Shown here: one piece after another, positions 30,851 to 49,984 of the stretch
Layout: every line of letters begins with the position of its first letter
How positions within the stretch are numbered: the stretch's first letter is position 1
The notes under the pieces: generated by a model
The model's input: the letters and a program-made list of their open reading frames with translations, nothing else
What the model was told of the DNA's origin: nothing
The model's database searches: none
Made by a program: the position numbers and the translations under genes
Source: Escherichia coli 042
GTDB lineage: Bacteria > Pseudomonadota > Gammaproteobacteria > Enterobacterales > Enterobacteriaceae
Length of the DNA: 64,000 nt
Reading direction: 5' to 3' (one strand)
Assembly: GCF_000027125.1 (NCBI RefSeq)
Contig: NC_017626.1

Positions 30851-30956
30851 GAGAGATATGAAGTCTGGACATAAACCTGAAGGCGGCATACGAGGTTGTG
30901 AATAGCGTTAAGGACAACCTGACTTAACCCCGTTCCGTCATGGTTATGCTGCTCTT

Positions 30957-30997
30957 CTGTAAATATCCTGACATTAATAATGCCAGGATATTTACAG
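30957..30997. repeat. Perfect 14-bp inverted repeat (hairpin or dyad site) between convergent ykgG and ykgH
   Basis: CTGTAAATATCCTG - 13 nt - CAGGATATTTACAG, read directly from the sequence. Confidence 0.5.
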
Positions 30998-31092
30998 TGA
31001 AAAAGACAGGAATCCATTCCTGAAGACGGGCTCCCTTCCCGGTCATTGTCACTTCAGTTTTATACAGGCACTCTCTATCAGAATGCTGTTTA

Positions 31093-31761
31093 TTACTGCC
31101 CAGAGTTTTGTTGGTATTCATCTACCATTTTTTTGACAAGACAAAACATTACAGAAATTACAATGCTTAGAAAAAATCCCAGAATCAGGCAAATGGCAGC
31201 AGGGTATTTATTTTTTATTTCTGGTGAGCTTATAGTGACACAGTCATCACCGTTCGGATACAATGACCAGTTCCTGGTCAGGTATATCATTTTTGTATAA
31301 AGCTCACTGTTAATTGCTGAAGGCGTTTGTATCTCATCAAGAACTTGCCTGCCATTATGGTATTCTGACGCATACCATTTGATAATAGACGCATGCACGC
31401 GAGATATTTCCACTTCAGCAGTTGGTAAATCTCTCTTATCTCCTGACCATTCCAGCTTTATTTCTCTGTTCTTGACATCTGGGCTGGTGTGAAAAAATGT
31501 AGTAATTCGCTGTATAACATCTTCAGTCATTGTGGTCTGACAGGCAAAGTTATTATTGCTATCACAGTTAACAAGTATGCCTGGTGTTGTCTGATTTATT
31601 TTTAGGCTGTAACTCACTTTTATATTATCTTTATTGATATACAGAAATAAAAGCACCATTGCCATACAGATGGCTATAATAAAAAGGATAACACGAATCT
31701 TTTTCTTCAGATAAAATAAAATCTCAATCAGATCGATATCCTGTTTGATTTGTTCATTCAT
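31093..31761 (-). CDS. ykgH: YkgH, predicted inner-membrane protein
   Basis: 222-aa ORF with N-terminal and C-terminal transmembrane helices. Confidence 0.8.
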   Translation of the reverse strand: MNEQIKQDIDLIEILFYLKKKIRVILFIIAICMAMVLLFLYINKDNIKVSYSLKINQTTPGILVNCDSNNNFACQTTMTEDVIQRITTFFHTSPDVKNREIKLEWSGDKRDLPTAEVEISRVHASIIKWYASEYHNGRQVLDEIQTPSAINSELYTKMIYLTRNWSLYPNGDDCVTISSPEIKNKYPAAICLILGFFLSIVISVMFCLVKKMVDEYQQNSGQ

Positions 31762-31956
31762 AATATATCCAGAAAATGAAATCTGTCGCAGATAAGGTTG
31801 TATTAATAGTCTGTATCAGGAATGTTCAGGGTAAATATCAGCAAAAAGCCAGCATCATGAATACTGGATATGAAGCATGAGAGTTACCTCAGTGTTTTAT
31901 ATAAGGATTCGGTCCTCATAGTAGAACGGTAACTCTCAATCTGATAGGTTCCTGAG

Positions 31957-33645
31957 TTAGTTCAAATCACGACTCATTTTTTTCGCTCTTACTGGCATCC
32001 CATTTGCCACAAAATATCTTGCCGTGCTCCTCGGCAACGCTTCTTGCCCGCGAATCATATCCGCTATTTTCTCGCCAATCATAATCGTCGTGGCGTTCAA
32101 ATTGCCGGTGATAATCTGCGGCATAATCGACGCATCCACCACACGCAGGCCTTCTAACCCGTGTACGCGGCCTTCGGCGTCAACCACTGCCATCTCGTCA
32201 TAACCCATTTTGCAGGTACCGCACGGATGAAACGCGGTTTCGGCGTGGTTACGCACGAACTCATCGAGCTGCTCATCCGTCTGACATTCCGTGCCGGGGC
32301 TGATTTCGCGGCCACGGTATTGATCCAGCGCGGGTTGATGCATGATCTCGCGGGTGATGCGAATTGCGTCGCGGAACTCCTGCCAGTCCTGCTCGTGCGA
32401 CATGTAGTTAAACAGAATCGCTGGATGCTGGTGCGGGTCGCGGGATTTAATCCGCACATGCCCACGGCTTGGCGAGCGCATCGAGCCGACGTGGCACTGG
32501 AAGCCGTGCTCTTTCACTGCATTCGAGCCGTTATAGTTAATCGCCACTGGCAGGAAATGGTACTGAATATTCGGCCACGCAAATTCCTCACGGCTGCGAA
32601 TAAATCCGCCTGCTTCAAAGTGGTTGCTGGCACCAACGCCGGTGCCGCCAAACAGCCACTCCGCACCGATTTTCGGCTGATTCCACCACTGCAGGGCAGG
32701 GTAGAGGGAAACCGGTTCTTTGCACTCATATTGCAGATACATCTCCAGGTGATCCTGAAGATTTTCGCCGACGCCAGGTAATTCATGCACCAGCGGAATA
32801 TCAAACTCCGCCAGCAGTCCAGCGTTGCCGACGCCGGAGCGTTGCAGGATCTGCGGTGAAGCAATCGCGCCTGCACATAACAGCACTTCTTTATTCGCCG
32901 CCGCGCGGGTCGGAATGGTGCTGTCGCCTTCCAGCCACTCGACGCCCACCGCGCGTTTGCCGTCAAAAATGATGTGATCGGTCATGGCGTGAGTACGAAT
33001 GGTCAGGTTAGGGCGCGATTTGGCCTGATCGAGATAGCCACGCGCGGTGCTGGCGCGACGGCCATGCGGCGTGACGGTGCGATCCATCGGGCCAAAACCT
33101 TCCTGCTGATAGCCGTTGAGATCGTCCGTGCGCGGGTAGCCCGCCTGCACGCCCGCTTCAATCATCGCTTCAAACAGCGGATTGACGCCGGGTTTGGAGG
33201 TGGTGACGCTCACCGGGCCATCACCGCCGTGGTAGTCGTTCTCGCCCACATCGCGAGTCTCGGCCTTGCGATAGTAGGGCAGACAGTCGAGGTAGCTCCA
33301 GTTCTCCAGACCGGGTTCTTGCGCCCAGTTATCAAGATCCAGCGCGTTACCACGGATGTAACACATGCCGTTGATCAGTGATGACCCGCCAAGCCCCTTA
33401 CCGCGTCCGCACTCCATGCGACGGTTATTCATAAACGGTTCGGGCTCCGTTTCATAGGCCCAGTTGTAGCGTTTACCCTGTAGCGGGAATGCCAGCGCGG
33501 CGGGCATCTGGGTGCGGAAGTCAAAGCGATAGTCCGGGCCGCCTGCTTCAAGCAGCAGCACGGTTGTGTTCGGATCTTCAGTCAGACGGGTAGCGAGGAC
33601 GTTGCCGGCTGAGCCGGCACCAATAATGATGTAGTCAAATTGCAA
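31957..33645 (-). CDS. betA: Choline dehydrogenase (GMC oxidoreductase)
   Basis: ORF 31957..33690; conserved N-terminus [20 protein letters not shown] begins at an in-frame TTG (33645) preceded by GGAGG, so a TTG start is proposed. Confidence 0.9.
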
Positions 33646-33658
33646 ATAAACCTCCTGG

Positions 33659-35131
33659 TTAGAATATGGACTGGAATTTAGCCATCTCAACCTGGATGGA
33701 CTTCACCTGGGTGTAACTCTGGAGCGTCATCACGCCGTTCTCGCGACCAATGCCGGAGTGTTTGTAGCCGCCAACGGGCATCTCAGCAGGGGATTCGCCC
33801 CAGGTGTTGATCCAGCAAATACCCGCTTCCAGCTGATGAATGACGCGATGCGCGCGGTTCAGGTCCGCCGTCACGATGCCCGCCGCCAGGCCGTAGTCGG
33901 TATCATTGGCGCGGCGAATCACTTCGTCCTCAGATTCATAAGTGAGAAGCGACATCACCGGACCGAAGATCTCTTCGCGCACGATAGTCATTTCGTCGCG
34001 GCAATCGGTGAACACGGTCGGTGCAACCCATGCGCCGTTATCGAAGCCATCGCCTTTCAGTACATCGCCGCCGCACAGTACGCGCGCGCCTTCCTCTTTG
34101 CCTTTGGCGATATAGCGCAGCACGTTATCGCGATGCGGGAAGCTGACCAGCGGGCCGAAGTTAGTTTGCGGATCGAAAACGTCGCCCGCGCGAATGCGCT
34201 CAACGCGCGCCAGAATCTTTTGTTCAAATGTGGCTTTGCATTTCGCCGGAACGAAGACGCGGGTGCCATTGGTACACACCTGACCGGAGCTGAAGAAGTT
34301 CGCCATCATGGCGATATCAGCGGCGAGATCGAGATCTGCATCGTCGAAAACGATCAGCGGTGATTTACCGCCCAGCTCCATGGTCACTTCTTTCAGGGAG
34401 GAAGCCGCCGAATTAGCCATCACTTTTTTGCCGCTGGCGACACCGCCGGTAAATGACACTTTGGCAATGCCCGGATGCTCGGTCAGATACTGCCCGGTTT
34501 CCGCACCTACGCCCGGCAGCACGTTAAATACGCCGTCCGGCAGGCCCGCTTCGCTGTAAATTTCGGCCAGCTTTAACGCGGTAAGCGGGGTGACTTCGCT
34601 CGGTTTGAAAATCATCGCGTTGCCTGCCGCCAGCGCCGGTGCGGATTTCCACAAGGCAATCTGGATCGGGTAGTTCCATGCGCCAATCCCTGCCACTACG
34701 CCCAGCGGTTCGCGGCGAGTATAAACAAATGACGTCTCACGCAATGGGATCTGGCTGCCTTCCAGCGACGGGATCAGCCCGGCGTAGTACTCGAGCACGT
34801 CCGCGCCGGTAACGATATCGACGGTTGAGGTTTCCGAATACGCTTTTCCGGTGTCGAGGGTTTCCAGTTTTGCGAGTTCGTCATTGCGTTCACGCAGAAT
34901 ATCAACGGCCCGACGCAGAATACGCGAGCGTTCCATAGCGGTCATCGCTGCCCAGATTTTTTGCCCCTGTTGGGCACTCTTCACGGCGCGATCGACATCC
35001 TCACGCCCGGCGGCCTGCACGGTCGCCAGCACGTTACCGTTGGCCGGGTTAATGGTCTCGAAGGTGCGACCGCTGGTGGCGGAGGTATAACCACCATGTA
35101 TATAAAGCTGCTGTTCTGCCATTCGGGACAT
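33659..35131 (-). CDS. betB: Betaine aldehyde dehydrogenase
   Basis: ORF 33659..35134; start set at [10 protein letters not shown] (ATG 35131); aldehyde dehydrogenase motifs (ELGGKSP, catalytic Cys region). Confidence 0.9.
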
Positions 35132-35144
35132 CACGTCTCCTCGG

Positions 35145-35732
35145 TTAATCGGTGGGTAAATGCTGAGAAATAAAGTGACGGGTCAGCGAGTGTGCGAGAG
35201 GTTTATCCAGCGGTTTGCCGCTCAGTGCCGCGCGCAGCCATAATCCGTCAATCAGCGCGGCAAGTCCGTAGCCCGCTTCCTGCGCCTGTTGGCGCGGTAA
35301 CTCGCGGCGAAATTCGCTCACCAGATTCGACAATAAGCGGCGGCTGCTCACCTGCTGCAAACGGTAAAGCATCGGCTGATGCATACTGCTGGCCCAGAAC
35401 GCCAGCCAGGCTTTCATCGCAGCATTACTGACCTGAGTCTCATCGAAATTCCCGTCAACAATCGCCTGTAATCGCTGCTCTGCACTGCCCTGCGGAAGTG
35501 CATGTAATCGATTCAAAACCGCGTCACGCAGCTGAGTGGTGATATCGCGCATGGTTGCTTCCAGCAGACCATTTTTGTCCCTGAAATAGTGGCTGATGAT
35601 CCCCGTAGAAACGCCTGCACGGCGGGCGATCTGCGCGATCGTTGCATCGTGCATGCCCACTTCATTTATTGCTTCCAGCGTGGCGTCGATCAGTTGTCTG
35701 CGCCGGATCGACTGCATCCCCAATTTGGGCAT
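35145..35732 (-). CDS. betI: BetI, TetR-family repressor of the bet regulon
   Basis: ORF 35145..35750; start set at [14 protein letters not shown] (ATG 35732); TetR HTH. Confidence 0.85.
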
Positions 35733-35776
35733 TTTCGCCACTCCATTCATCAGCGTTGTTTATCTATTAAAGCGGT

Positions 35777-35796
35777 TATTGATTGGACGTTCAATA
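35777..35796. promoter_or_regulatory. Dyad-symmetric candidate BetI operator in the betI-betT divergent promoter region
   Basis: TATTGA - 8 nt - TCAATA inverted repeat in the 128-bp intergenic region. Confidence 0.45.
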
Positions 35797-35860
35797 TAAA
35801 ATGTGTCTTAATTGTTACGAATTTGATTTTAAATGGTAACAATAACAGTGGGGATACTGG

Positions 35861-37894
35861 ATGACAGACCTTTCACACAGCAGGGAAAAGGACAAAATCA
35901 ATCCGGTGGTGTTTTACACTTCCGCCGGACTGATTTTGTTGTTTTCCCTGACAACGATCCTGTTTCGCGACTTCTCGGCCCTGTGGATTGGCCGCACGCT
36001 GGACTGGGTTTCTAAAACCTTCGGTTGGTACTATCTGCTGGCGGCAACGCTCTATATTGTCTTTGTGGTCTGCATCGCTTGTTCGCGTTTTGGTTCGGTG
36101 AAGCTCGGGCCTGAACAATCCAAACCGGAATTTAGCCTGCTGAGCTGGGCGGCGATGCTGTTTGCTGCCGGGATCGGTATCGACCTGATGTTCTTCTCCG
36201 TAGCCGAACCGGTAACGCAGTATATGCAGCCGCCGGAAGGCGCGGGTCAGACGATTGAGGCCGCGCGTCAGGCGATGGTCTGGACGCTGTTTCACTACGG
36301 CTTAACCGGCTGGTCGATGTATGCGCTGATGGGCATGGCGCTCGGATACTTTAGCTATCGTTATAATTTGCCGCTCACCATCCGCTCAGCGTTGTACCCG
36401 ATCTTCGGTAAACGGATTAATGGGCCGATTGGTCATTCAGTGGATATTGCAGCGGTGATCGGCACCATCTTCGGTATTGCCACTACGCTCGGTATCGGTG
36501 TGGTGCAGCTTAACTATGGCTTGAGCGTACTGTTTGATATTCCTGATTCAATGGCGGCGAAAGCGGCACTGATCGCCTTGTCGGTGATCATCGCAACGAT
36601 CTCTGTCACCTCCGGTGTCGATAAGGGCATTCGCGTGTTATCGGAACTCAACGTTGCGCTGGCGCTGGGGTTGATCCTGTTCGTGCTGTTTATGGGCGAC
36701 ACCTCGTTCCTGCTTAATGCGCTGGTGCTGAACGTTGGCGACTATGTGAATCGCTTTATGGGAATGACGCTCAACAGTTTTGCCTTCGACCGTCCGGTTG
36801 AGTGGATGAATAACTGGACGCTCTTCTTCTGGGCATGGTGGGTGGCATGGTCGCCGTTTGTCGGCCTGTTTCTGGCGCGTATCTCGCGCGGGCGCACCAT
36901 TCGCCAGTTCGTGCTGGGCACGTTGATTATTCCGTTTACCTTCACGCTGTTATGGCTCTCGGTATTCGGCAATAGCGCGCTGTATGAAATCATCCACGGC
37001 GGCGCGGCATTTGCCGAGGAAGCGATGGTCCATCCGGAGCGCGGCTTCTACAGCCTGCTGGCGCAGTATCCGGCGTTTACCTTTAGCGCCTCCGTCGCCA
37101 CCATTACTGGCCTGCTGTTTTATGTGACCTCGGCGGACTCCGGTGCGCTGGTGCTGGGGAATTTCACCTCGCAGCTTAAAGATATCAACAGCGACGCCCC
37201 CGGCTGGCTGCGCGTCTTCTGGTCGGTGGCGATTGGCCTGCTGACGCTTGGCATGCTGATGACCAACGGGATATCCGCGCTGCAAAACACCACGGTGATT
37301 ATGGGGCTGCCGTTCAGCTTTGTGATCTTCTTCGTGATGGCGGGGTTGTATAAATCTCTGAAGGTAGAAGATTACCGCCGTGAAAGTGCCAACCGCGATA
37401 CCGCACCGCGACCGCTGGGGCTTCAGGATCGCCTGAGCTGGAAAAAACGTCTCTCGCGCCTGATGAATTATCCGGGCACGCGTTACACTAAACAGATGAT
37501 GGAGACGGTCTGTTACCCGGCAATGGAAGAAGTGGCGCAGGAGCTGCGGTTGCGCGGCGCGTACGTGGAGCTAAAAAGCCTGCCGCCGGAAGAGGGACAA
37601 CAGTTGGGGCATCTGGATTTGTTGGTGCATATGGGCGAAGAGCAAAACTTTGTCTATCAGATTTGGCCGCAGCAATATTCGGTGCCGGGCTTTACCTACC
37701 GCGCACGTAGCGGTAAATCGACCTACTACCGGCTGGAAACCTTCCTGTTAGAAGGCAGCCAGGGCAACGACCTGATGGACTACAGCAAAGAGCAGGTGAT
37801 CACCGATATTCTCGACCAGTACGAGCGGCACCTTAACTTTATCCATCTCCATCGTGAAGCGCCGGGCCATAGCGTGATGTTCCCGGACGCGTGA
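35861..37894 (+). CDS. betT: BetT, high-affinity choline transporter (BCCT family)
   Basis: 677-aa ORF with multiple transmembrane segments and a hydrophilic C-terminal tail. Confidence 0.9.
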   Translation: MTDLSHSREKDKINPVVFYTSAGLILLFSLTTILFRDFSALWIGRTLDWVSKTFGWYYLLAATLYIVFVVCIACSRFGSVKLGPEQSKPEFSLLSWAAMLFAAGIGIDLMFFSVAEPVTQYMQPPEGAGQTIEAARQAMVWTLFHYGLTGWSMYALMGMALGYFSYRYNLPLTIRSALYPIFGKRINGPIGHSVDIAAVIGTIFGIATTLGIGVVQLNYGLSVLFDIPDSMAAKAALIALSVIIATISVTSGVDKGIRVLSELNVALALGLILFVLFMGDTSFLLNALVLNVGDYVNRFMGMTLNSFAFDRPVEWMNNWTLFFWAWWVAWSPFVGLFLARISRGRTIRQFVLGTLIIPFTFTLLWLSVFGNSALYEIIHGGAAFAEEAMVHPERGFYSLLAQYPAFTFSASVATITGLLFYVTSADSGALVLGNFTSQLKDINSDAPGWLRVFWSVAIGLLTLGMLMTNGISALQNTTVIMGLPFSFVIFFVMAGLYKSLKVEDYRRESANRDTAPRPLGLQDRLSWKKRLSRLMNYPGTRYTKQMMETVCYPAMEEVAQELRLRGAYVELKSLPPEEGQQLGHLDLLVHMGEEQNFVYQIWPQQYSVPGFTYRARSGKSTYYRLETFLLEGSQGNDLMDYSKEQVITDILDQYERHLNFIHLHREAPGHSVMFPDA

Positions 37895-37910
37895 TTGTTA
37901 TTGCATAAAA

Positions 37911-37936
37911 CCGCGCCATGTCTGCATATGGCGCGG
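37911..37936 (+). terminator. Hairpin downstream of betT (putative terminator)
   Basis: 9-bp stem CCGCGCCAT / ATGGCGCGG with an 8-nt loop; the trailing T-run is weak. Confidence 0.4.
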
Positions 37937-38467
37937 GAATCATTGACTCGCTGTAAAAAATTATGCATATATTATATATGATTGTCATGTCATATCCTGC
38001 AATTCCTCTTGTATCACTTCATGATTTTATATTTTATTAATTAACGATTTTATTTTGTATTAGCTGAATGGATTCAGTCCTATAGAGTTATATATTTATT
38101 AATAAGACGATTCTTATATTTTGATACCTAATAAGAGTTACCACTTTTACCGGCTGTATATTAAATGTATTTCTCTTGCTTTTGTTTATATTTTGAGTTG
38201 ATTTGAGTTCCTGGATACATATAATGCGCAGGTATTAGAGACTGGGGGGGAATGTAATGATAAAGTTAAGAGTGTTAACTTAAAATAAGTTTTCAGTAGT
38301 AACTTGCTATTTTATTACCCTCTGAACTACATACTCAGATATGTGGTTGCCAATGCTATGCAAAATTTTTGAATTTTTATATGCGATGAACAGTAACCGG
38401 AATGGCATTTAATGCGTTGCTGTTTATGCAATCTTGGTTTTATTTGGATGTATTGCTGGAGATTGTG

Positions 38468-41400
38468 ATGAATAAAATATATCGGCTAAAGTGGAACAGG
38501 TCCCGTAACTGTTGGAGCGTCTGCTCGGAGCTGGGGAGTAGAGTAAAAGGAAAAAAGTCCCGGGCTGTTTTAATTAGCGCGATAAGTTTATATTCATCTC
38601 TGGCACTGTCTAAAGATGTCGCTGTAAGTGAAGATTACACAGCTGTATTCGGTAAAGATAACCAGACTATTGATTACCGTATTTCAGTGACCGACAATGC
38701 CAATCTGGTAATCGATGCGACAGATTCTTCTCGTCCACGTCTGACTCTCGCGTCTGGTGGTGGGCTGGATATCACTGGAGGGAAGGTGCATATCAATGGC
38801 TCGCTTAACTTTTTGTTAAAAGGGACGGGGTTTCTGAACGTCGCCAATGCTGGCAGCGAGTTATATGCTGATGATTTATATGAGTCTTACTCTAATATTA
38901 CCCACGATAGAGGCTATTTTAATGTCTCCAACGGCGGCAAAATCCATGTTAAGGGCACCAGCCGTCTGACCTATTTGCAGGGAAATGTCAGCGGTGAAGG
39001 CAGCCAGGTAAATTCTAAAACCTTCTTTATGGGCGTTTACGGCAGTTACGGTGGCAATCAGTATCTGTCAGTTAATAACGGCGGTGAAGTTAATGCCAGT
39101 GAAAAAATTAGCCTAGGCTATTATGATCAAGTCTCCGATACAACACTTGCTGTTTCGGAAGGTGGTAAAATTTATGCGCCGACTATTAGTTTAAGCACCA
39201 ACTCTGAGTTAGCGTTAGGGGCACAGGAAGGAAGTGCTGCGAAGGCAGCAGGGATTATTGATGCCGAAAAAATTGAGTTTGTGTGGGCAAAGACATCCGA
39301 TAAGAAAATCACCTTAAATCACACGGATAAAAACGCGACTATTTCCGCGGATATTGTCAGTGGCAGCGAGGGCCTGGGCTATATCAATGCGCTCAATGGC
39401 ACGACTTACTTAACCGGGGATAACTCCGCCTTTAGCGGTAAAGTCAAAATTGAGCAAAATGGCGCTTTAGGGATCACCCAAAATATAGGTACAGCAGAAA
39501 TCACCAACCGCGGGAAATTACACCTGAAGGCTGACGATAGCATGACCTTTGCCAATAAGATTTCTGGCAACGGTACAATAAGTATCGACAGTGGGACAGT
39601 GACGCTGACTGGCAATAACTATGCATTCAGCGGATATATTGATGTCGCTTCTGGTGCTGTCGCGGTTATTTCTGAAGACAAGAACATCGGCCGTGCAGAA
39701 CTGGATGTTGATGGCAAATTGCAAATTAATGCCAACAAAGATTGGGTATTTGATAACGATCTTGAAGGTAGAGGCATTGTTGAAATAAACATGGGGAATC
39801 ACGAATTCTCCTTCGATGAGTTTGCCTATACAGACTGGTTCCAGGGTTCACTGGCGTTCCAGAACACGACATTTAACCTGGAAAAGAATGCTGAGTTTCT
39901 GCAGAGAGGCGGGATCACTGCGGGTCAGGGAAGCCAGGTAACAGTGGGTAAGGGCGCTCACTCCATTAGCACTTTGGGATTCTCCGGCGGAACGGTTGAT
40001 TTTGGTGCCCTGGCAGCTGGTGCACAGATGACAGAAGGGACAGTCAACGTTAGTAAAACGCTGGATTTGCGTGGCGAGGGTGTGATTCAGGTTTCTGACA
40101 GTGACGTTGTCCGCTCTGTATCTCGTGATATTGACTCTGCGTTATCGCTCACTGAAGTCGATGATGGTAACAGCACCATTAAGTTGGTTGATGCGCAAGG
40201 TGCGGAAGTTCTGGGCGATGCGGGCAATCTGCAATTGCAGGATAAAAATGGACAAATCTTCTCCAGCAGCGCCCAACGTGATATTCAGCAGAATGGGCAA
40301 AAAGCGGCCGTCGGCACTTACGACTATCGTCTGACGAGTGGGGTAAACAATGACGGTCTGTATATCGGTTACGGCCTGACCCAGCTTGAATTGCAGGCTA
40401 CCGACAGTGATGCCCTGGTGCTGAGTGCCAACGGTAAAAGCGAGAATGCCGCCGATCTTAGTGCAAAGATTACCGGCAGTGGTGACCTGGCCTTCAGCAG
40501 CCAGAAAGGTCAGACCGTATCGCTTTCTAACAAAGACAACGACTATACCGGTATTACCGATCTGCGCAGCGGGACGCTTTTGTTGAATAACGATAACGTG
40601 TTGGGTAATACCCATGAACTGCGTCTGGCGGCAGAGACTGAACTGGATATGAATGGTCACAGCCAGATCGTGGGCACGCTCAATGGCAGCGCCGATTCAC
40701 TGCTGAGCTTGAACGGCGGGAGTCTGACGGTTACCAACGGGGGCACTTCAACCGGTTCGTTAACGGGGAGCGGAGAGCTGAATATTCAGGGCGGCACGCT
40801 GGACATCGCGGGCGATAACAGCAACCTGACGGCGAATGTGAACATTGCTAATTCGGCTAATGTCCTGGTAAGTCATGCGCAGGGATTGGGTAGCGCAAAC
40901 GTTGAGAACAACGGTACCCTGGCGTTGAATAATAGCGCTGAAAAAAGAGCGGCTGCGTCTGTGAATTACACCCTGGGCGGCAATCTGACCAACAACGGTA
41001 CGCTGATGACCGGAATGTCAGGACAGCAAGCTGGCAATATGTTAGTGGTGAAGGGGAACTACCACGGTAATAACGGTCAACTAGTAATGAATACGGTACT
41101 GAATGGCGATGACTCAGTAACCGATAAATTGGTTGTCGAGGGCGATACTAGCGGCACGACTGCCGTTACGGTGAATAACGCTGGCGGTACAGGTGCGAAA
41201 ACCCTTAACGGTATCGAACTTATCCATGTTGACGGTAAGTCTGAGGGCGAATTCGTTCAGGCTGGGCGTATCGTTGCGGGGGCATATGACTACACTCTCG
41301 CGCGTGGACAAGGGGCAAATAGTGGTAACTGGTATCTGACCAGCGGCAGTGATTCTCCTGAACTGCAGCCGGAGCCAGACCCGATGCCGAATCCGGAGCC

Positions 41401-42451
41401 AAACCCGAATCCAGAGCCGAACCCTAACCCGACACCTACGCCGGGTCCGGATCTGAATGTGGATAATGACCTGCGACCGGAGGCGGGTAGCTACATTGCG
41501 AACCTTGCAGCAGCGAATACCATGTTCACCACGCGTCTGCATGAGCGTCTGGGTAATACGTACTATACCGACATGGTGACGGGTGAGCAGAAACAAACCA
41601 CTATGTGGATGCGCCATGAAGGTGGTCATAATAAATGGCGTGATGGCAGCGGCCAGCTGAAAACCCAAAGCAATCGCTATGTTCTGCAACTGGGAGGCGA
41701 TATCGCGCAGTGGAGCCAAAACGGCAGCGACAGCTGGCATGTTGGGGTCATGGCGGGATATGGCAACAGCGACAGCAAAACCATTTCCTCGCGAACTGGT
41801 TATCGTGCTAAAGCGAGTGTGAACGGATATAGCACAGGCCTCTATGCCACCTGGTATGCCGATGACGAGTCGCGTAATGGCGCGTATCTCGACAGTTGGG
41901 CGCAGTACAGCTGGTTTGATAACACAGTGAAAGGTGATGATTTACAAAGTGAATCCTATAAATCAAAAGGATTTACCGCTTCACTGGAAGCTGGATACAA
42001 ACACAAATTAGCTGAATTTAATGGCAGCCAGGGAACGCGTAATGAATGGTATGTTCAGCCGCAAGCACAGGTTACCTGGATGGGAGTCAAAGCCGATAAG
42101 CACCGCGAAAACAATGGAACCCTCGTTCATAGCAACGGTGATGGCAATGTTCAAACCCGACTTGGCGTAAAAACCTGGCTGAAGAGCCACCATAAAATGG
42201 ATGACGGTAAATCCCGCGAGTTCCAGCCGTTTGTAGAAGTGAACTGGCTGCATAACAGTAAGGATTTCAGCACCAGTATGGATGGCGTGTCCGTCACTCA
42301 GGATGGAGCCCGAAATATTGCTGAGATAAAAACCGGGGTGGAAGGACAGCTAAATGCCAACCTGAATGTCTGGGGGAATGTGGGCGTTCAGGTTGCCGAT
42401 AGGGGATATAATGACACCTCTGCAATGGTTGGCATTAAGTGGCAATTCTGA
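38468..42451 (+). CDS. ehaA: AIDA-I-type (type Va) autotransporter adhesin, EhaA-like
   Basis: ORF 38402..42451; start set at ATG 38468 (MNKIYRLKWNRSRNCWSVCSELGSR, extended signal peptide region). Repetitive passenger, Pro-rich linker PEPDPMPNPEPNPNPEPNPNPTPTPGP, C-terminal beta-barrel ending ...GIKWQF. Confidence 0.85.
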   Translation: MNKIYRLKWNRSRNCWSVCSELGSRVKGKKSRAVLISAISLYSSLALSKDVAVSEDYTAVFGKDNQTIDYRISVTDNANLVIDATDSSRPRLTLASGGGLDITGGKVHINGSLNFLLKGTGFLNVANAGSELYADDLYESYSNITHDRGYFNVSNGGKIHVKGTSRLTYLQGNVSGEGSQVNSKTFFMGVYGSYGGNQYLSVNNGGEVNASEKISLGYYDQVSDTTLAVSEGGKIYAPTISLSTNSELALGAQEGSAAKAAGIIDAEKIEFVWAKTSDKKITLNHTDKNATISADIVSGSEGLGYINALNGTTYLTGDNSAFSGKVKIEQNGALGITQNIGTAEITNRGKLHLKADDSMTFANKISGNGTISIDSGTVTLTGNNYAFSGYIDVASGAVAVISEDKNIGRAELDVDGKLQINANKDWVFDNDLEGRGIVEINMGNHEFSFDEFAYTDWFQGSLAFQNTTFNLEKNAEFLQRGGITAGQGSQVTVGKGAHSISTLGFSGGTVDFGALAAGAQMTEGTVNVSKTLDLRGEGVIQVSDSDVVRSVSRDIDSALSLTEVDDGNSTIKLVDAQGAEVLGDAGNLQLQDKNGQIFSSSAQRDIQQNGQKAAVGTYDYRLTSGVNNDGLYIGYGLTQLELQATDSDALVLSANGKSENAADLSAKITGSGDLAFSSQKGQTVSLSNKDNDYTGITDLRSGTLLLNNDNVLGNTHELRLAAETELDMNGHSQIVGTLNGSADSLLSLNGGSLTVTNGGTSTGSLTGSGELNIQGGTLDIAGDNSNLTANVNIANSANVLVSHAQGLGSANVENNGTLALNNSAEKRAAASVNYTLGGNLTNNGTLMTGMSGQQAGNMLVVKGNYHGNNGQLVMNTVLNGDDSVTDKLVVEGDTSGTTAVTVNNAGGTGAKTLNGIELIHVDGKSEGEFVQAGRIVAGAYDYTLARGQGANSGNWYLTSGSDSPELQPEPDPMPNPEPNPNPEPNPNPTPTPGPDLNVDNDLRPEAGSYIANLAAANTMFTTRLHERLGNTYYTDMVTGEQKQTTMWMRHEGGHNKWRDGSGQLKTQSNRYVLQLGGDIAQWSQNGSDSWHVGVMAGYGNSDSKTISSRTGYRAKASVNGYSTGLYATWYADDESRNGAYLDSWAQYSWFDNTVKGDDLQSESYKSKGFTASLEAGYKHKLAEFNGSQGTRNEWYVQPQAQVTWMGVKADKHRENNGTLVHSNGDGNVQTRLGVKTWLKSHHKMDDGKSREFQPFVEVNWLHNSKDFSTSMDGVSVTQDGARNIAEIKTGVEGQLNANLNVWGNVGVQVADRGYNDTSAMVGIKWQF

Positions 42452-42592
42452 TCTGAATAATGAGTAAAAGGAGAGAGAGCCGAACGGGAGATAATTCGGC
42501 TCTCTGTGTCATTTTCTTGCAGCCAGCTTTATCAGTCAGAGTGAAGACTCGCAGATTTAGCTGGCGCACAAGATTTAATCAAGGTGTGTTCA

Positions 42593-43681
42593 ATGGCTTC
42601 GCATGATTTGAGTGTTTTTTTGGAAGAGTTCGGGGCAACGGTGAATTTGACGTTGCCTGGTATCGTGTCCGAAAAAGAACGGCTTTTACTCAAGCTGCTA
42701 ATGGAGGGAATGTCGGTTACAGAAATCTCACAGTACAGAAATCGCAGTGCAAAGACAATTTCACATCAAAAGAAGCAGCTGTATGAAAAACTAGGCATCC
42801 AGAGTGATATTACCTTCTGGCGGGATATCTTTTTTCAATATCATCCGCAAGTCATCAGTGGCACGGGAAATAAAAATAATTTTTATATTCCTGATAACCG
42901 TTGTCACCATATCGTCACGCCTGAAGCCATCAGTCTGGCGTTGGAAAACCATGAATTTAAACCGTGGATCCAACCGGTTTTCTGCGCGCAGACTGGGGTA
43001 CTGACGGGCTGTGAGGTGCTTGTCCGCTGGGAACATCCACAAACGGGAATTATCCCACCGGATCAGTTTATTCCTCTGGCGGAGTCATCTGGTCTTATCG
43101 TCATAATGACTCGCCAGTTGATGAAACAGACTGCGGATATTCTGATGCCGGTAAAACATTTGCTGCCGGACAATTTCCATATTGGCATCAACGTCTCGGC
43201 GGGTTGTTTTTTGGCTGCGGGATTTGAAAAAGAGTGTCTGAACCTGGTTAAGAAATTAGGTAACGATAAAATCAAACTGGTTCTCGAGCTAACGGAACGT
43301 AACCCTATTCCGGTAACGCCAGAAGCCAGAGCGATATTTGACAGCCTTCATCAGCACAACATTACCTTTGCGCTGGATGATTTTGGTACGGGTTATGCGA
43401 CCTATCGTTATTTGCAGGCGTTTCCGGTCGATTTTATTAAGATCGATAAGTCGTTTGTGCAAATGGCGAGTGTCGACGAAATTTCCGGTCATATTGTGGA
43501 CAATATTGTCGAACTGGCGCGTAAGCCTGGTCTGAGTATCGTGGCGGAAGGGGTAGAAACCCAGGAGCAGGCGGATTTAATGATCGGCAAAGGCGTTCAC
43601 TTTTTACAGGGCTATTTGTACTCCCCGCCAGTTCCGGGTAATAAATTTATCTCTGAATGGGTAATGAAAGCAGGTGGTTGA
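42593..43681 (+). CDS. pdeL: PdeL (YahA), c-di-GMP phosphodiesterase with N-terminal LuxR-type HTH and C-terminal EAL domain
   Basis: ORF 42584..43681; ATG 42593 preferred (AAGG SD, 362 aa); LuxR HTH (MSVTEISQYRNRSAKTISHQKKQLYEKL) and EAL-domain motifs (ELTE, DDFGTGY). Confidence 0.85.
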   Translation: MASHDLSVFLEEFGATVNLTLPGIVSEKERLLLKLLMEGMSVTEISQYRNRSAKTISHQKKQLYEKLGIQSDITFWRDIFFQYHPQVISGTGNKNNFYIPDNRCHHIVTPEAISLALENHEFKPWIQPVFCAQTGVLTGCEVLVRWEHPQTGIIPPDQFIPLAESSGLIVIMTRQLMKQTADILMPVKHLLPDNFHIGINVSAGCFLAAGFEKECLNLVKKLGNDKIKLVLELTERNPIPVTPEARAIFDSLHQHNITFALDDFGTGYATYRYLQAFPVDFIKIDKSFVQMASVDEISGHIVDNIVELARKPGLSIVAEGVETQEQADLMIGKGVHFLQGYLYSPPVPGNKFISEWVMKAGG

Positions 43682-43722
43682 TGTAAACCGCTATTCACAG
43701 CGCATCGGGAGGTTGGCAGCGA

Positions 43723-44655
43723 TTAATTCTCCCGATGCAGTAAATCCTGATAGATCCCCGTTAATATGCCATTTGGCGCAAATTGTTTTTTAATCCACTG
43801 CGTCACCTGACCCGTAGCAGAATGCTGAGTCGCCAGTAACATGCGCGAATCCTGGCGCGGATTATGGATTTGTCGGGTAACCAGCAGGGATTGCGTCATC
43901 GCCTCACGGACCATGTAATCCGGCAAAAACCCAATTCCTTCACCTAAAATCTGGCACTGACATTTGGTGTTGAAATCTGGCACCAGAATCGACTCCTGCC
44001 CATGCAGCAACCAGCCCACTTTTTTATTAATCGTATGCGCGGTGTCCTCCACCATGATATTAGGATAGAGACGCAGTTGGCTTTCGGCGATCGGCTCCGG
44101 CACAAAGGCTAATGGGTGATCCGGGGCGATAGCAAAAGCCCAGCGAATTGCGCCAATCTCCGTGTAATCAATGCCGCCGCCGTCCAGCAGTGTGTCGGGC
44201 GCGCCGATAGCAATATTCGCCTGATTATTAATAATCGCATCCCAGACGCCGTTATACACTTCGGTCGTCACGGTAATCTGGCAGGTTGGAAACTGCTTTT
44301 TCAGTACCTGTAATAAGCGTGCGGTGTGTTTGGGCGTATAAAGCAGTTGGTTAATACAAATGCGCACCCGTGCTTCTATACCCTGCGAAATAGTATCGAT
44401 GCTGCGTTTGATGGCGTGAAAATCATTCAGCAGGTCGGTAGCTTTGCGGAAAAAATAACGCCCGGACTCCGTTAACTCAATGCTTCGGGTACTGCGAGTG
44501 AACAGCACCACATCCAGCCCTGTTTCCATTCGCTTGATGGTGTAGCTAATGGCGGAAGTGGTTAAACCCAACTCTTCTGCGGCTTTACTGAAACTGCCAA
44601 AACGCGCAGCGGTAGTAAATGCCAACAGATTCTCTTCGGTAAAAATTGAGTTCAT
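43723..44655 (-). CDS. yahB: YahB, LysR-family transcriptional regulator
   Basis: 310-aa ORF with N-terminal LysR HTH (FSKAAEELGLTTSAISYTIKRME). Confidence 0.85.
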   Translation of the reverse strand: MNSIFTEENLLAFTTAARFGSFSKAAEELGLTTSAISYTIKRMETGLDVVLFTRSTRSIELTESGRYFFRKATDLLNDFHAIKRSIDTISQGIEARVRICINQLLYTPKHTARLLQVLKKQFPTCQITVTTEVYNGVWDAIINNQANIAIGAPDTLLDGGGIDYTEIGAIRWAFAIAPDHPLAFVPEPIAESQLRLYPNIMVEDTAHTINKKVGWLLHGQESILVPDFNTKCQCQILGEGIGFLPDYMVREAMTQSLLVTRQIHNPRQDSRMLLATQHSATGQVTQWIKKQFAPNGILTGIYQDLLHREN

Positions 44656-44746
44656 TAAACCATTCCCGCCATTATCGAATATGAATTTCTCCAGCCATGA
44701 CTGTAGAGGTATCGGTTAAAGATAGATAATCATTTTTGAATAACTT

Positions 44747-45244
44747 TTAATACCCGTCGCGTTTAGTCGTCGCTTCGCTTAATTTTTGTCCGCCATATTC
44801 TGAAATTATCCCCACGCAGTTACCCGCCAGAAAACCCAGTAATGTCACTGTCCAGTTCATCCCGCTGGCAAAAAATAGCGTCATGCCGAGAAAGCCTCCG
44901 GGAATAAAAGACAATAAACCGAAACGTCCTTGCCAGACCACCACCGCCGAGAAGGGTACAGTCATAATCACGCTCGCCCAGAACGTGGACAATCCACTCA
45001 CCGAGGCCAGCCAGCCGGCAGCCAGCGCGGCGAAAAACGCCCACACCATCCCGGAATAATTAACCGCCAGACTTCTGATAAACCCCGATTTACCGCCGCC
45101 TGCGGCATAAAAACTGCAAAAGGCGACGAAGCCAATGGTTCCTAATAATTCCCATCCCTGAGAGAGCCCGACATGTGAAGACACTAACTGCCAAAGCCCT
45201 GCACAAATACCGACGGTGACACCCGTTGCCGTGAGTCCGTTCAT
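44747..45244 (-). CDS. yahC: YahC, small inner-membrane protein
   Basis: 165-aa highly hydrophobic ORF upstream of yahB on the same strand. Confidence 0.8.
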   Translation of the reverse strand: MNGLTATGVTVGICAGLWQLVSSHVGLSQGWELLGTIGFVAFCSFYAAGGGKSGFIRSLAVNYSGMVWAFFAALAAGWLASVSGLSTFWASVIMTVPFSAVVVWQGRFGLLSFIPGGFLGMTLFFASGMNWTVTLLGFLAGNCVGIISEYGGQKLSEATTKRDGY

Positions 45245-45501
45245 CTTGTTCCCCTCTGGTTAGACATGGACGAAAGCTACTCTTACATGTGCAGACTATA
45301 GAGAAATAAAACCTGATTGAGTGAAAGGGTATCGGGTCAAAGAAACAAATATTGCACTACCGCACACTGCGAAAAGATTGTTGAACATCATTCAACAAAA
45401 AGGCGAAATACGGCGAATTAAATTTAAGCGGGTTCTTTTATCAGATTATCGTTGCTATTCTCAATTCATCGAAAACAGCCACAAAAACCAGGGGAATGTG
45501 A

Positions 45502-46107
45502 ATGACTATAAAAAATCTACCTGCCGACTATTTATTGGCTGCGCAACAGGGTGATATCGATAAAGTAAAAACCTGCCTTGCGCTGGGTGTCGATATTAAT
45601 ACCTGCGATCGTCAGGGGAAAACGGCAATTACGCTGGCAAGTTTATATCAGCAATATGCTTGCGTTCAGGCATTAATTGATGCCGGAGCGGATATTAATA
45701 AGCAAGATCAAATATGTTCAAATCCTTTTTTAATTAGCTGCCTGACCGGCGATTTAACCCTGTTACGGATTATTTTATCGGCTAAACCCGATCTTAATTG
45801 CGTCACCCGTTTTGGCGGTGTCGGCCTGACGCCTGCCTGTGAAAAAGGCCATTTAAGTATTGTAAAAGAGCTTTTGGCGCATACGGAGATTAACGTTAAC
45901 CAGACCAACCATGTTGGCTGGACGCCGCTACTGGAAGCAATTGTGCTTAATGATGGCGGGATTAAACAGCAGGCGATTGTCCAGTTATTGCTGGAACACG
46001 GTGCCAGCCCGCACATGACGGATAAATATGGCAAAACGCCGCTGGAACTGGCGCGGGAACGAGGCTTTGAAGAGATTGCGCAGTTACTGATTGCCGCAGG
46101 TGCATAA
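45502..46107 (+). CDS. yahD: YahD, ankyrin-repeat protein
   Basis: 201-aa ORF with consecutive ankyrin repeats (G.TAL..A...G....V..LL..GADIN). Confidence 0.85.
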   Translation: MTIKNLPADYLLAAQQGDIDKVKTCLALGVDINTCDRQGKTAITLASLYQQYACVQALIDAGADINKQDQICSNPFLISCLTGDLTLLRIILSAKPDLNCVTRFGGVGLTPACEKGHLSIVKELLAHTEINVNQTNHVGWTPLLEAIVLNDGGIKQQAIVQLLLEHGASPHMTDKYGKTPLELARERGFEEIAQLLIAAGA

Positions 46108-46146
46108 ACCGGGAGGCTTGCTATCAACACACCAGAAAGACGGTGT

Positions 46147-47010
46147 GTGTGGGCGCTAACTGCGGATGCTGATTTTCTGGCGCAGCGGGGGCAAGGACAG
46201 GTTGAACAGGTCTTTGCCAGAGCGGTAAATATCGCACTTCCGGCCCGCCAGCAGTTGCTGACGCTGCTTTGTGAAGAGTACGACAATGCGCCAAACAGTT
46301 GTCGGTTGGCACTCACTCACTTTGATGATCTGTTCCGGCATGGTGATAAGGTTCAGTTTGACGATCAAGGCATTACGGTTGGTCAACATCTTCATATAGA
46401 GATGAGTCGTTGTCGGCGTTGGCTGTCCCCAACCTTGCAAATGACCGCTGTGAATTTTCACCTTATCGCCTGGCAACAGTGGCATGACATTATTCATCAG
46501 CACCTGGGGGAAAATGAAACCCTGTTTAATTATCGCGGCGATAATCCGTTTTATCAGGCGTTAAATAAAGAATTACATATTAAACGACAGGCAGTTATTC
46601 AGGCAGTAAACGATAAACAAAATATCGCCTCAGCGGTCGTCAGTATGATGGGCTTAGGGATTGGCCTTACGCCATCAGCCGACGATTATTTAACAGGTCT
46701 GGCGCTTATTTTATTTATTTCCGGACATCCGTCGGAAAAATACAAAGAGGAATTTTATCTCGGTCTGCAACGCGGCAGAAATAATACCACGTTATTAAGT
46801 GCCATAACGCTGGAAGCCGCATTACAACAACGCTGCCGGGAAAATATTCATCGTTTTATTCATAACATTATTTATGACATCCCTGGGAACGCAACTCAGG
46901 CAATAGAAAAAATTAAACATATTGGCTCCAGTTCCGGCTGCGACATGCTGTATGGCATGGCCGATGGTTGTGCGCTGAGCCAAACCTACGGAGGGAATTA
47001 TGTCAGTTAA
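46147..47010 (+). CDS. yahE: YahE (DUF2877), YlbF-like
   Basis: 287-aa ORF; overlaps the yahF start by 11 nt. Confidence 0.8.
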   Translation: MWALTADADFLAQRGQGQVEQVFARAVNIALPARQQLLTLLCEEYDNAPNSCRLALTHFDDLFRHGDKVQFDDQGITVGQHLHIEMSRCRRWLSPTLQMTAVNFHLIAWQQWHDIIHQHLGENETLFNYRGDNPFYQALNKELHIKRQAVIQAVNDKQNIASAVVSMMGLGIGLTPSADDYLTGLALILFISGHPSEKYKEEFYLGLQRGRNNTTLLSAITLEAALQQRCRENIHRFIHNIIYDIPGNATQAIEKIKHIGSSSGCDMLYGMADGCALSQTYGGNYVS

Positions 47011-49965: not shown

Positions 49966-49984
49966 CCTGCAAAGTGCGCGTTGT

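Follow-up and report, generated by a model that had tools for sequence, protein, structure and literature searches.

Intact ehaA of Escherichia coli 042 in an old alternative betT-pdeL haplotype, downstream of a predicted orthologue of the K-12 pdeL promoter

Background

The gene ehaA is already known as a classical adhesin gene and as the content of O-island 15, which in EDL933 measures 4643 bp and contains ehaA/z0402 as its single ORF (PMC8565820). In E. coli O157:H7 (Z0402/ECs0362; Wells et al. 2008, Environ Microbiol 10:589; reviewed in PMC8565820), EhaA has published roles in aggregation, in the formation of biofilms, and in attachment to bovine rectal cells. Published work on EhaA also describes pig loops, in which an ehaA mutant adhered less well and the gene was induced 9-fold where the loops were AE-positive. 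Related autotransporters of the AIDA-I-type group include MisL, ShdA, YfaL/EhaC, and IcsA ("Group 8" of PMC9289746), and homologues of ehaA are reported to be common in E. albertii. A second relevant system is the pdeL promoter of K-12, which comprises a Cra box, the PdeL sites CDB and CIB, and H-NS sites, and whose silencing by H-NS was established experimentally (Reinders et al., bioRxiv 10.1101/2021.10.01.462762).

Here, we describe the corresponding locus in a 64,000-nucleotide stretch of E. coli 042 DNA ("the window"), in which all features discussed lie on the + strand. We consider it very likely that this locus combines an intact allele of O-island 15 ehaA, an old alternative haplotype of the betT-pdeL interval, and a promoter orthologous to that of K-12 pdeL, which may bring Cra, PdeL, and H-NS inputs with it.

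Results and discussion

Identity and architecture of the autotransporter

A preliminary description of the window had placed an EhaA-like, AIDA-type autotransporter between betT and pdeL, and this assignment is borne out by Pfam and NCBIfam matches and by RefSeq orthologues at the same junction, which carry the name "autotransporter adhesin EhaA" in 1385 of 5426 complete E. coli genomes. The coding sequence (38468..42451) is intact, encoding 1327 aa plus a stop, with no stop codons within the ORF; translation begins with MNKIYRLKW at 38468, as in the RefSeq orthologues, within a longest frame of 38402..42451. The protein equals O157:H7 EhaA in length and is 96.6% identical to it (97% at the nucleotide level), sharing the gene order betT-ehaA-pdeL, a 4643-bp block, and the order of domains, but differing at 45 residues, 29 of which fall within the first 300 residues at the passenger tip. 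Among complete genomes, the closest allele was that of the soil isolate VCSW7 (99.2% aa identity). By these sequence comparisons, the gene product is EhaA, a type Va autotransporter of the AIDA-I type.

All of the structural hallmarks noted earlier—an ESPR start, a Gly/Asn/Thr-rich passenger, a Pro-rich linker, and a terminal WQF—are present in the ORF. The ESPR occupies residues 1-39 (38468..38584; PF13018, E 5e-10), and the full signal peptide probably extends to about residue 48, with cleavage at ALS/KD. For the passenger (38633..41347, residues 56-960; G 13.6%, N 9.3%, S 9.3%, T 8.4%), AlphaFold2 returned an all-beta model with a mean pLDDT of 88.8 and a pTM of 0.73, predicted to be a right-handed beta-helix, for which the best Foldseek matches were the IcsA passenger, Ag43, Hap, Hbp, EspP, and pertactin. 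The passenger contains an AC_1 autochaperone (40982..41299, residues 839-944; PF18883, E 3.5e-28) that matches the IcsA autochaperone 3ML3 in both sequence (E 1.8e-28) and structure (TMt 0.82); the PDB sequence search also recovered IcsA 5KE1. A beta-barrel translocator, whose absence from the C-terminal part had been named as the result that would speak against an autotransporter, was found at residues 1046-1305 (41603..42382; PF03797, E 3.6e-46), with a TIGR01414 match at E 2e-124 and homology to the AIDA-I barrel 4MEE spanning residues 1001-1327 (E 3e-92).

EhaA thus shares the ESPR, beta-helix passenger, AC_1 autochaperone, and 12-strand barrel of the AIDA-I-type group. It falls, however, under the curated cut-offs of all named NCBIfam models (339 vs 1200 for AIDA-I, 508 vs 1297 for MisL) and is therefore not an orthologue of any named member, and roughly the first 700 residues of its passenger had no match in Pfam or among PDB sequences. 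It also resembles Ag43/Cah and other self-associating autotransporters in its beta-helix passenger and in the aggregation and biofilm phenotypes known for EhaA from published work, though sequence identity in the fold alignment amounts to no more than 12-14%. Ag43 is phase-variable via Dam/OxyR and is cleaved.

From what is known of the family, the ESPR-bearing signal peptide would direct Sec export and BAM/TAM would insert the 12-strand C-terminal barrel, through which the beta-helical passenger of ~900 residues, joined to it by a disordered Pro-rich linker, would be threaded C-terminus first and fold on the autochaperone. Once displayed, the passenger would mediate cell-cell aggregation, biofilm formation, and adhesion, functions that we infer for the 042 protein because it is 96.6% identical to the orthologue in which they were demonstrated.

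A promoter region shared with K-12 pdeL

The DNA upstream of ehaA (37935..38467) is A/T-rich, as had been remarked, with 30.4% GC over 533 bp vs 49.5% for the whole window. Alignments showed it to be collinear with the counterparts in K-12, a B2-type strain, E. whittamii, and E. albertii, and its blast similarity to the K-12 counterpart exceeded that of 100/100 shuffles; overall identity to K-12 is nevertheless only about 51%, the yahV ORF of K-12 is lacking, and an Rfam search returned no family match. Judged from these alignments, the region is homologous, though diverged, to the stretch between betT and pdeL in K-12 where the pdeL promoter lies.

Within it, a predicted sigma-70 promoter, TTGATT-16-TATAAT (38198..38225; 10/12 match to consensus), corresponds to TTGATC-16-TATAAT in K-12 (L001 4011..4038), the position assigned to the pdeL core promoter by K-12 oligos 4283 and 5032. 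Two blocks, AGTTGAT and CATATAATGCGC, show no change across the six aligned sequences, and the promoter is kept in E. albertii too. We therefore predict that this element is orthologous to the pdeL core promoter and transcribes ehaA from a start at about 38232, giving a leader of ~240 nt.

Upstream of this promoter lies a candidate Cra (FruR) box, GCTGAATGGATTCAGTC (38063..38079), with a 12/16 match to the Cra consensus. The identical sequence occurs in K-12 (L001 3873..3889) as the EMSA-verified box of the pdeL promoter, within oligo 4695 ("CB CDB"), and it forms a 17-bp invariant run in the six-sequence alignment, where 0.0002 such runs would be expected. Its spacing from the promoter is likewise similar, about -161 upstream of ehaA and -164 in K-12, but a box ~160 bp upstream of the predicted start is far for a classical activator, which counts against activation by Cra. 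A putative PdeL-box-like palindrome, AATAAG-N6-CTTAT (38101..38117), has no second exact match anywhere in the 64-kb window; its half-sites and their spacing recur in the K-12 CIB palindrome (L001 3676..3692), within the EMSA fragment of oligos 4991/4997, and the element is kept in E. whittamii, with one change in E. albertii. The arrangement differs from that of K-12 in that the full palindrome is proximal in 042 (about 38 bp past the Cra box) and distal in K-12, the proximal K-12 site (CDB) being only partly conserved upstream of ehaA (7/13 by alignment inspection) and no equivalent of the distal CIB being found there. Moreover, the whole module precedes ehaA in 042, with pdeL 4.3 kb downstream.

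Because the Cra box, the PdeL-box palindrome, and the A/T-rich context bound by H-NS in K-12 are all retained in this orthologue of the pdeL promoter, Cra and PdeL probably activate ehaA when c-di-GMP is low, and H-NS probably silences it. The earlier suggestion of silencing by nucleoid proteins is accordingly plausible by analogy, since the region is homologous to one that H-NS silences in K-12. None of the papers searched links ehaA with Cra or PdeL. Possible Cra/PdeL/H-NS/c-di-GMP control of ehaA, and perhaps also of the pdeL gene that follows it, is a new lead.

Transcription of pdeL behind ehaA

The 141-bp spacer between ehaA and pdeL contains a stem-loop (42474..42505) with a stem of 11-12 bp and a stability of about -19 kcal/mol; its stem is shared with E. 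whittamii and E. albertii, whereas the loop varies among them. This hairpin is possibly a weak terminator, an attenuator, or a 3'-end stabiliser, and pdeL may be co-transcribed with ehaA through it. A serious competitor, to which we give somewhat less than an even chance, is that the two genes do not form an operon: the Cra box and promoter would drive ehaA only, the hairpin would terminate efficiently, and pdeL would rely on an unrecognised promoter of its own, situated in the spacer or within the 3' end of ehaA. The conserved stem-loop with its downstream U-run fits this arrangement, as do the 76-88% conservation of the spacer in the outgroups and the retention of the last 346 bp of ehaA in E. 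albertii NBRC 107761 (DSM 17582). In favour of the regulation proposed above, that E. albertii strain has lost most of ehaA but still has the promoter and pdeL. Against separate transcription of the two genes, the U-run sits 6 nt away from the stem, the orthologous promoter in K-12 is that of pdeL, and a scan of 42452-42592 found no sigma-70-like site of at least 9/12, so that if the hairpin does terminate transcription, pdeL would need a promoter missed by the scan.

Two old haplotypes at the betT-pdeL junction

On the left, the block is bounded by betT (35861..37894), a 677-aa ORF whose RefSeq orthologues are the choline BCCT transporter BetT and which is 98.9% identical to K-12 in nucleotide sequence. 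The first base past its stop codon is 37895, followed by a terminator-like hairpin (37911..37936) at which the left breakpoint (37934/37935) is located. By blastn, homology to MG1655 ends at 37934 and restarts at 42578, leaving a segment without alignable counterpart (37935..42577) that, at 4643 bp, has the same size as O-island 15. MG1655 has no ehaA at betT-pdeL, as the preliminary description had expected, but the simple insertion that it envisaged does not hold: K-12-type strains (3656 of 5426 genomes) carry 820 bp of different, unalignable sequence in place of the ehaA block, and the divergence extends into the first ~310 bp of pdeL (42593..43681; LuxR-type HTH and EAL c-di-GMP phosphodiesterase), with dense mismatches to K-12 stopping at 42903. 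Residues 1-104 of PdeL hold 23 of its 24 differences from K-12, and, measured against K-12, dS reaches 0.905 in codons 1-104 vs 0.13 in the EAL part. In sequence terms, the two arrangements are related by replacement rather than insertion.

Intact ehaA adjoins pdeL-yahB-yahC-yahD in both E. whittamii and E. albertii, with dS values (0.32 and 0.81, respectively) close to those of flanking yahB (0.36 and 0.81), and it is instead the K-12-type block that is the outlier, its dS to each of the three ehaA-type lineages being about 0.9. We interpret the junction as having two old alternative haplotypes, the K-12 one lacking the ehaA ORF; given its synteny in the other two species, the ehaA haplotype appears to be ancestral or long-resident and not a recent import. 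The pdeL gene of E. albertii is a mosaic; the locus therefore recombines, and a tree-like reading is approximate.

A different polarity, with the K-12 type older and a promoterless ehaA inserted long ago into the leader of a Cra/PdeL-controlled pdeL, seems to us unlikely but worth weighing. In its favour, the same promoter module stands upstream of pdeL in K-12 and of ehaA in 042, EhaA-like autotransporters of Trabulsiella, Citrobacter, and Yokenella have no adjoining pdeL, and the K-12-type block is itself old, with divergence in three bands that reach down to 90-95%. Each of the three outgroup loci examined, however, contains ehaA or its remnants, and none is of the K-12 type, which was not seen outside E. 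coli.

Less probable still, at around one chance in ten, is the originally proposed horizontal acquisition, by which ehaA would be an island at a conserved junction and K-12 the ancestral empty site. Several observations point in this direction: K-12 and about 67% of complete E. coli genomes lack the gene, the DNA upstream of it is A/T-rich, its GC3 is below that of betT (0.52 vs 0.71), and it bears the historical label "O-island". Yet there is no empty site in K-12, the block shows neither a tRNA nor an integrase nor direct repeats at its flanks, the GC content of the ORF (49.4%) matches the window mean (49.5%), and neither the syntenic orthologues, with dS equal to flanking genes, nor the outlying position of the K-12-type block fits a late arrival. 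Recent acquisition is thus largely refuted by the sequence comparisons; one predating the split of E. coli and E. albertii is conceivable. That ehaA is a silent or decaying relic in 042 is very improbable: an A/T-rich promoter that H-NS probably binds suggests low laboratory expression and truncated alleles occur in E. albertii and some E. coli, but the canonical 1327-aa ORF is intact, all domains score strongly, and dN/dS is well below 1 (0.018/0.11 vs O157; 0.042/0.32 vs E. whittamii).

Length variation in the linker

The Pro-rich linker, SDSPELQPEPDPMPNPEPNPNPEPNPNPTPTPGPDLNVDN (41348..41467, residues 961-1000; 37.5% Pro), is predicted to be disordered, with a pLDDT of 30-40 in the AlphaFold2 model. 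TRF identified within it 2.1 copies of an 18-bp tandem unit, CCGAATCCAGAGCCAAAC (PNPEPN; 41387..41424). The anticipated length variation at this PNPEP repeat does exist and is in-frame, but within E. coli it is rare, affecting about 8 of 1392 genomes (+18 bp in four, -18 bp in three, and +12 bp in one); a 3-copy allele is found in O103 RM8385, and length differences also occur between species.

An O-island 15 autotransporter between betT and pdeL

The gene at 38468..42451 (+), flanked by betT and by pdeL (42593..43681), was identified as ehaA. By megablast, the segment 37700..42700 is present whole in 1385 of 5426 complete E. coli genomes, and in all 1385 the gene between betT and pdeL is annotated as 'autotransporter adhesin EhaA'; carriers thus make up about a quarter of E. 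coli, O157:H7, O104:H4, O103 and O111 among them. The protein shares 96.6% amino acid identity with the O157:H7 allele at an equal length of 1327 aa, with 29 of the 45 substitutions falling within the first 300 residues, and the nearest allele, from a soil isolate, is 99.2% identical. The segment that differs from K-12 measures 4643 bp, the very length published for O-island 15 of EDL933, an island with ehaA/z0402 as its sole ORF (PMC8565820). Nearly identical to Z0402 of O157:H7, equally long and identically placed, the gene is the EhaA orthologue of O-island 15; taken with the published characterization and the fold matches, it is an already known member of an established family. A preliminary description had recognized an EhaA-like AIDA-type autotransporter at this position; it corresponds to the known EhaA of O-island 15, described since 2001–2008, and the gene itself adds nothing new.

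EhaA of O157:H7 is surface-located, and its overexpression leads to aggregation and biofilm formation. It promotes adhesion to bovine terminal-rectum cells, a mutant adheres less in pig ileal loops, and ehaA is induced ~9-fold in AE-positive loops; the beta-domain is a widely used display scaffold. Surface display, aggregation, biofilm formation and adhesion have been demonstrated for the O157:H7 protein only, and by analogy the 042 allele may share them.

Two database records carrying the region stand apart. NZ_CP026085.1, a 4.83-Mb genome labelled 'E. coli DH5alpha', has ehaA; K-12 derivatives are without it, and the record is probably mislabelled. JAIJJM010000200.1, a 5.1-kb contig labelled 'MAG: Collinsella sp.', matches betT-ehaA-pdeL of E. 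coli at 96% identity and represents binning contamination in a species-representative genome.

Domain architecture and predicted fold of EhaA

The interval 38402..42451 (+) is a single long frame in the ORF list. RefSeq orthologues start at ATG 38468 (MNKIYRLKW...), which is preceded by a GGAG Shine-Dalgarno sequence and gives 1327 aa with a terminal WQF. An in-frame ATG at 38402, 22 codons 5' of the annotated start, would give 1349 aa (extension 38402..38467); we favour 38468 because of the extended signal peptide region (ESPR) motif and the RefSeq annotations. Pfam places the ESPR (PF13018) at residues 1-39 (E 5e-10, above the cut-off), followed by a hydrophobic core and then ALS|KD, and the N-terminus has the predicted form of a Sec signal peptide of the extended type. 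Further along, Pfam matched the AC_1 autochaperone (PF18883, residues 839-944, 98 bits, cut-off 27) and the autotransporter barrel (PF03797, residues 1046-1305, 158 bits, cut-off 26), and the generic barrel domain TIGR01414 of NCBIfam scored 416 bits against a cut-off of 16. NCBIfam similarities to the ECSE_1600 family, MisL, AIDA-I, ShdA and YfaL were all sub-threshold. Searches of PDB sequences returned the AIDA-I barrel 4MEE (E 3e-92), IcsA fragments and the IcsA autochaperone 3ML3 (E 1.8e-28), the last of these also matching in structure (TMt 0.82).

Gly, Asn, Ser and Thr are enriched in the passenger. Residues 56-1000, modelled with AlphaFold2 from 29 homologues at a mean pLDDT of 88.8, are predicted to form an all-beta solenoid of short beta strands with a disordered linker. 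Foldseek ranked the passengers of IcsA, Ag43, Hap, Hbp, EspP and pertactin as the closest folds to this model, with a probability of 1.00 for IcsA and Ag43 and E ~2e-3 to 8e-3 for pertactin (1DAB/2IOU); the passenger is thus modelled as a right-handed, pertactin-like beta-helix. The Pfam Pertactin family (PF03212) gave no match in this allele and a weak match in orthologues. Signal peptide, barrel with aromatic end, autochaperone and beta-helix together are those of a classical (type Va) autotransporter of the AIDA-I type. Domain and fold searches therefore bear out the barrel and pertactin-like passenger expected from the sequence, and every feature of the preliminary description was recovered: the 1327-codon ORF, the ESPR, the Gly/Asn/Thr-rich passenger, the Pro-rich linker, the WQF end and the A/T-rich upstream region.

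Two ancient haplotypes at the betT-pdeL junction

Homology to K-12 MG1655 stops at 37934, just beyond the betT terminator hairpin, and restarts at 42578, 15 bp 5' of the pdeL ATG; ehaA is, as anticipated, not at this position in K-12. The accompanying reading of ehaA as accessory content at a conserved junction, if taken as a simple insertion, is not borne out: there is no empty site, K-12 instead carrying 820 bp of unlike sequence (L001 3538..4357 in the MG1655 locus), including the small ORF yahV, in place of the 4643 bp, and the divergence enters pdeL. Over its first ~310 bp pdeL is 75-89% identical to K-12 per 100-bp window, with dense mismatches ending at 42903, and beyond ~42950 identity is 95-100%; 23 of the 24 amino acid differences between the two PdeL proteins lie within residues 1-104. 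Because divergence runs past 42577 into pdeL, the true variable block is ~37935..42903.

PdeL itself exists as two deeply divergent N-terminal alleles (42593..42903, codons 1-104, dS 0.905), both joined to a near-identical EAL domain (dS 0.13) with the break between 42903 and 42952; in the recognition-helix region, residues 38-83, only 2 positions differ between them. When the K-12 PdeL N-terminus was used as a protein query for a donor lineage of the K-12-type allele, only E. coli fragments came back. Directly 3' of pdeL, yahB and yahC are annotated as frameshifted pseudogenes in O157:H7 strain 380-94 (L003 9024..10554 in that locus) and are intact in the window.

The K-12-type segment, without ehaA, occurs in 3656 of 5426 genomes, in divergence bands of >=99%, 95-99% and 90-95%, and the two types together account for ~93% of genomes. 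A tblastn search of the K-12 intergenic region with EhaA found no ORF remnant, so the K-12 segment is homologous to the ehaA upstream region only and is not decayed coding sequence.

Scanning a single genome for each species turned up a full-length ehaA orthologue in E. whittamii (91% identity) and a heavily deleted remnant in E. albertii NBRC 107761 (DSM 17582), the locus directly adjoining pdeL-yahB-yahC-yahD in both. In many other E. albertii strains the gene at this place is intact and encodes 1331 aa, and a published survey found ehaA homologues to be common in that species. Relative to the window, ehaA and yahB have dS values of 0.32 and 0.36 in E. whittamii and of 0.81 each in E. albertii. 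The pdeL 5' block of the window has a dS of 0.30 to E. whittamii and 0.42 to E. albertii, and the K-12-type block, at 0.905 to the window, stands at 0.9-1.1 to each outgroup; of the two haplotypes, that of K-12 is the deeply divergent one. The tRNA scan found no tRNA in 30000..50000, and there is no integrase and no direct repeat at the junctions, the longest word shared by the two being a chance 6-mer; GC content of the ehaA ORF is 49.4%, against a window mean of 49.5%. Given flank-like dS, GC at the mean and the lack of tRNA, integrase or repeat, the ehaA haplotype behaves as vertically inherited in Escherichia and does not have the marks of a horizontally acquired genomic island. The junction is occupied by two ancient alternative haplotypes. 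An ancient insertion of ehaA into the pdeL leader is a conceivable alternative origin. Horizontal acquisition, the origin first suggested for the gene, is unsupported for any recent time, given syntenic orthologues in two sister species, divergence that tracks yahB and no marks of mobility. 'O-island' here denotes a long-resident state common to sister species, with the K-12 reference holding the divergent allele—a caution that 'absent from K-12' need not mean 'acquired'.

Several further features of the outgroup loci were observed. In E. albertii NBRC 107761 (L022 1..1040), ehaA is cut to ~700 bp of fragments corresponding to window 39536..39651, 41582..41814 and 42106..42451, a loss independent of the K-12-type loss in which the upstream promoter block and pdeL were kept. 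Neither E. whittamii nor E. albertii has the betABIT operon to the left of ehaA: E. whittamii keeps only the last ~26 bp of betT, and the left neighbours in E. albertii are ykgEFG-like LUD genes, a LysR regulator and an aldo-keto reductase. The pdeL gene of E. albertii (L027 and L022) is a mosaic, with codons 1-104 at a dS of 0.42 to E. coli and the EAL domain at ~1.3 to all others, far exceeding the neighbours yahD (0.26) and yahB (0.81); the history of the locus is therefore not purely tree-like.

Similarity of the upstream region to the K-12 pdeL promoter

The 533 bp upstream of ehaA have a GC content of 30.4% (window, 49.5%). A first blastn against the K-12 intergenic region gave a 30-bp match only; sensitive searches revealed a weak collinear similarity that beat 100 of 100 shuffles, and going through E. 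whittamii strengthened it (52.5 bits). In multiple alignments, the region is collinear, at ~51% pairwise identity, with its counterparts in K-12, a 95% variant, a B2 variant, O157, E. whittamii and E. albertii. Within these alignments, GCTGAATGGATTCAGTC at 38063..38079 (K-12 L001 3873..3889) is invariant across the six covering sequences, with 0.0002 such runs expected, as is the promoter stretch TATTTT-AGTTGAT...CATATAATGCGC; promoter blocks are also kept in E. albertii. The predicted ehaA promoter, TTGATT-16-TATAAT at 38198..38225, aligns with TTGATC-16-TATAAT at L001 4011..4038, the K-12 position being inferred from oligos 4283 and 5032, and its core -35/-10 elements are orthologous to those of PpdeL, the K-12 pdeL promoter. 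K-12 yahV (L001 3803..3877) ends inside the Cra box; because the matching stretch, 38023..38063, consists mostly of gaps in the ehaA haplotype, the window contains no equivalent of yahV.

The oligonucleotide table in the supplement of Reinders et al. (bioRxiv 10.1101/2021.10.01.462762) ties the conserved blocks to experiments. [quoted passage not shown] The putative Cra box upstream of ehaA, the invariant block at 38063..38079, is identical in sequence to the K-12 CB in oligo 4695, which was bound in EMSA. In K-12 the proximal CDB and the distal CIB palindrome are the two PdeL boxes behind cooperativity. By inspection of the alignments, the CDB-equivalent is identical to K-12 at 7 of 13 positions. 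AATAAG-N6-CTTAT has its sole exact copy in the 64-kb window at 38101..38117, between Cra box and promoter, and is conserved in E. whittamii with one change in E. albertii; one full palindrome is thus present, and neither the alignments nor the window search found a distal (CIB) palindrome upstream of ehaA. An Rfam scan of 37700..42800 (E <= 1) had no match, so the leader holds no riboswitch or sRNA of a known kind.

In K-12, Cra and PdeL jointly activate this promoter, H-NS silences it and high c-di-GMP turns it off, resulting in bistable expression (bioRxiv 10.1101/2021.10.01.462762). By homology, the A/T-rich region upstream of ehaA, which the preliminary description took to be probably silenced by nucleoid proteins, is the orthologue of a promoter with experimentally established H-NS silencing, and its low GC content and kinship with PpdeL suggest that H-NS silencing and c-di-GMP-dependent autoregulation may apply here as well. 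The arrangement differs, however: in K-12 the PpdeL module precedes pdeL, whereas in the ehaA haplotype it precedes ehaA.

A possible ehaA-pdeL transcription unit

Transcription of ehaA probably begins at ~38232, which would give a leader of ~240 nt, and is probably controlled by Cra, PdeL and H-NS. At the scan threshold, no promoter-like site was found in the 141 bp between ehaA and pdeL. At 42474..42505 lies a stem-loop whose stem is conserved and whose loop varies in the outgroups, with the U-run displaced by 6 nt; its fold z-score over 79 nt (-0.88) is not significant against shuffles, so the case for this hairpin rests on stem conservation only. Read-through into pdeL from the ehaA promoter and a promoter of its own that the scan missed are about evenly balanced. 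E. albertii NBRC 107761, which independently lost most of ehaA and kept promoter and pdeL, fits a promoter serving pdeL, as does the K-12 arrangement itself.

We tentatively propose, giving it slightly less than an even chance, that in ehaA-positive E. coli, E. whittamii and E. albertii a PpdeL-type promoter drives an ancestral ehaA-pdeL unit with ehaA as its leading gene, that Cra and PdeL turn this unit ON when c-di-GMP is low and H-NS silences it, and that K-12 carries an ancient ehaA-less allele (dS ~0.9) with a different PdeL N-terminus and rearranged PdeL boxes. This proposal is based on sequence conservation and on the match to experimentally defined K-12 sites. In the literature searched, no paper connects ehaA or z0402 with pdeL or with regulation by Cra or H-NS, and only the promoter homology and the regulatory proposal resulting from it go beyond that literature. 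The PdeL 'digital' c-di-GMP switch has been dissected only in K-12; in ehaA strains, what follows its promoter module is an adhesin of aggregation and biofilm formation. If functional, the module would, in EHEC and many commensals, couple surface adhesion to c-di-GMP state and, through Cra, to central metabolism, and would predict heterogeneous (ON/OFF) EhaA expression.

Length variation in the Pro-rich linker

Residues 961-1000 of EhaA are 37.5% Pro, and their coding sequence contains 2.1 copies of an 18-bp unit. The PNPEP repeat had been put forward as a likely site of length variation, which holds in kind, with variants differing by the 18-bp unit; within E. coli such variants are rare. Among evenly sampled alleles, 58 of 59 are equal in length across a 421-bp linker span, and a query with a 3-copy allele, used to count variants in ~1392 genomes, found the in-frame unit at 2 copies in ~99.4% of them and only 8 variant genomes. 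These comprise four with an additional 18 bp (O103 RM8385, in which PNPEPN occurs three times rather than twice, two O111:H11 and one bovine isolate), three lacking 18 bp (two O157:H7 and one environmental isolate) and one with an additional 12 bp. Because the changes are in-frame, the linker is not a phase switch, and, almost fixed in length within E. coli, it does not behave as a repeat-mediated contingency locus. Between species and paralogues, its length ranges from ~10 to 45 residues.
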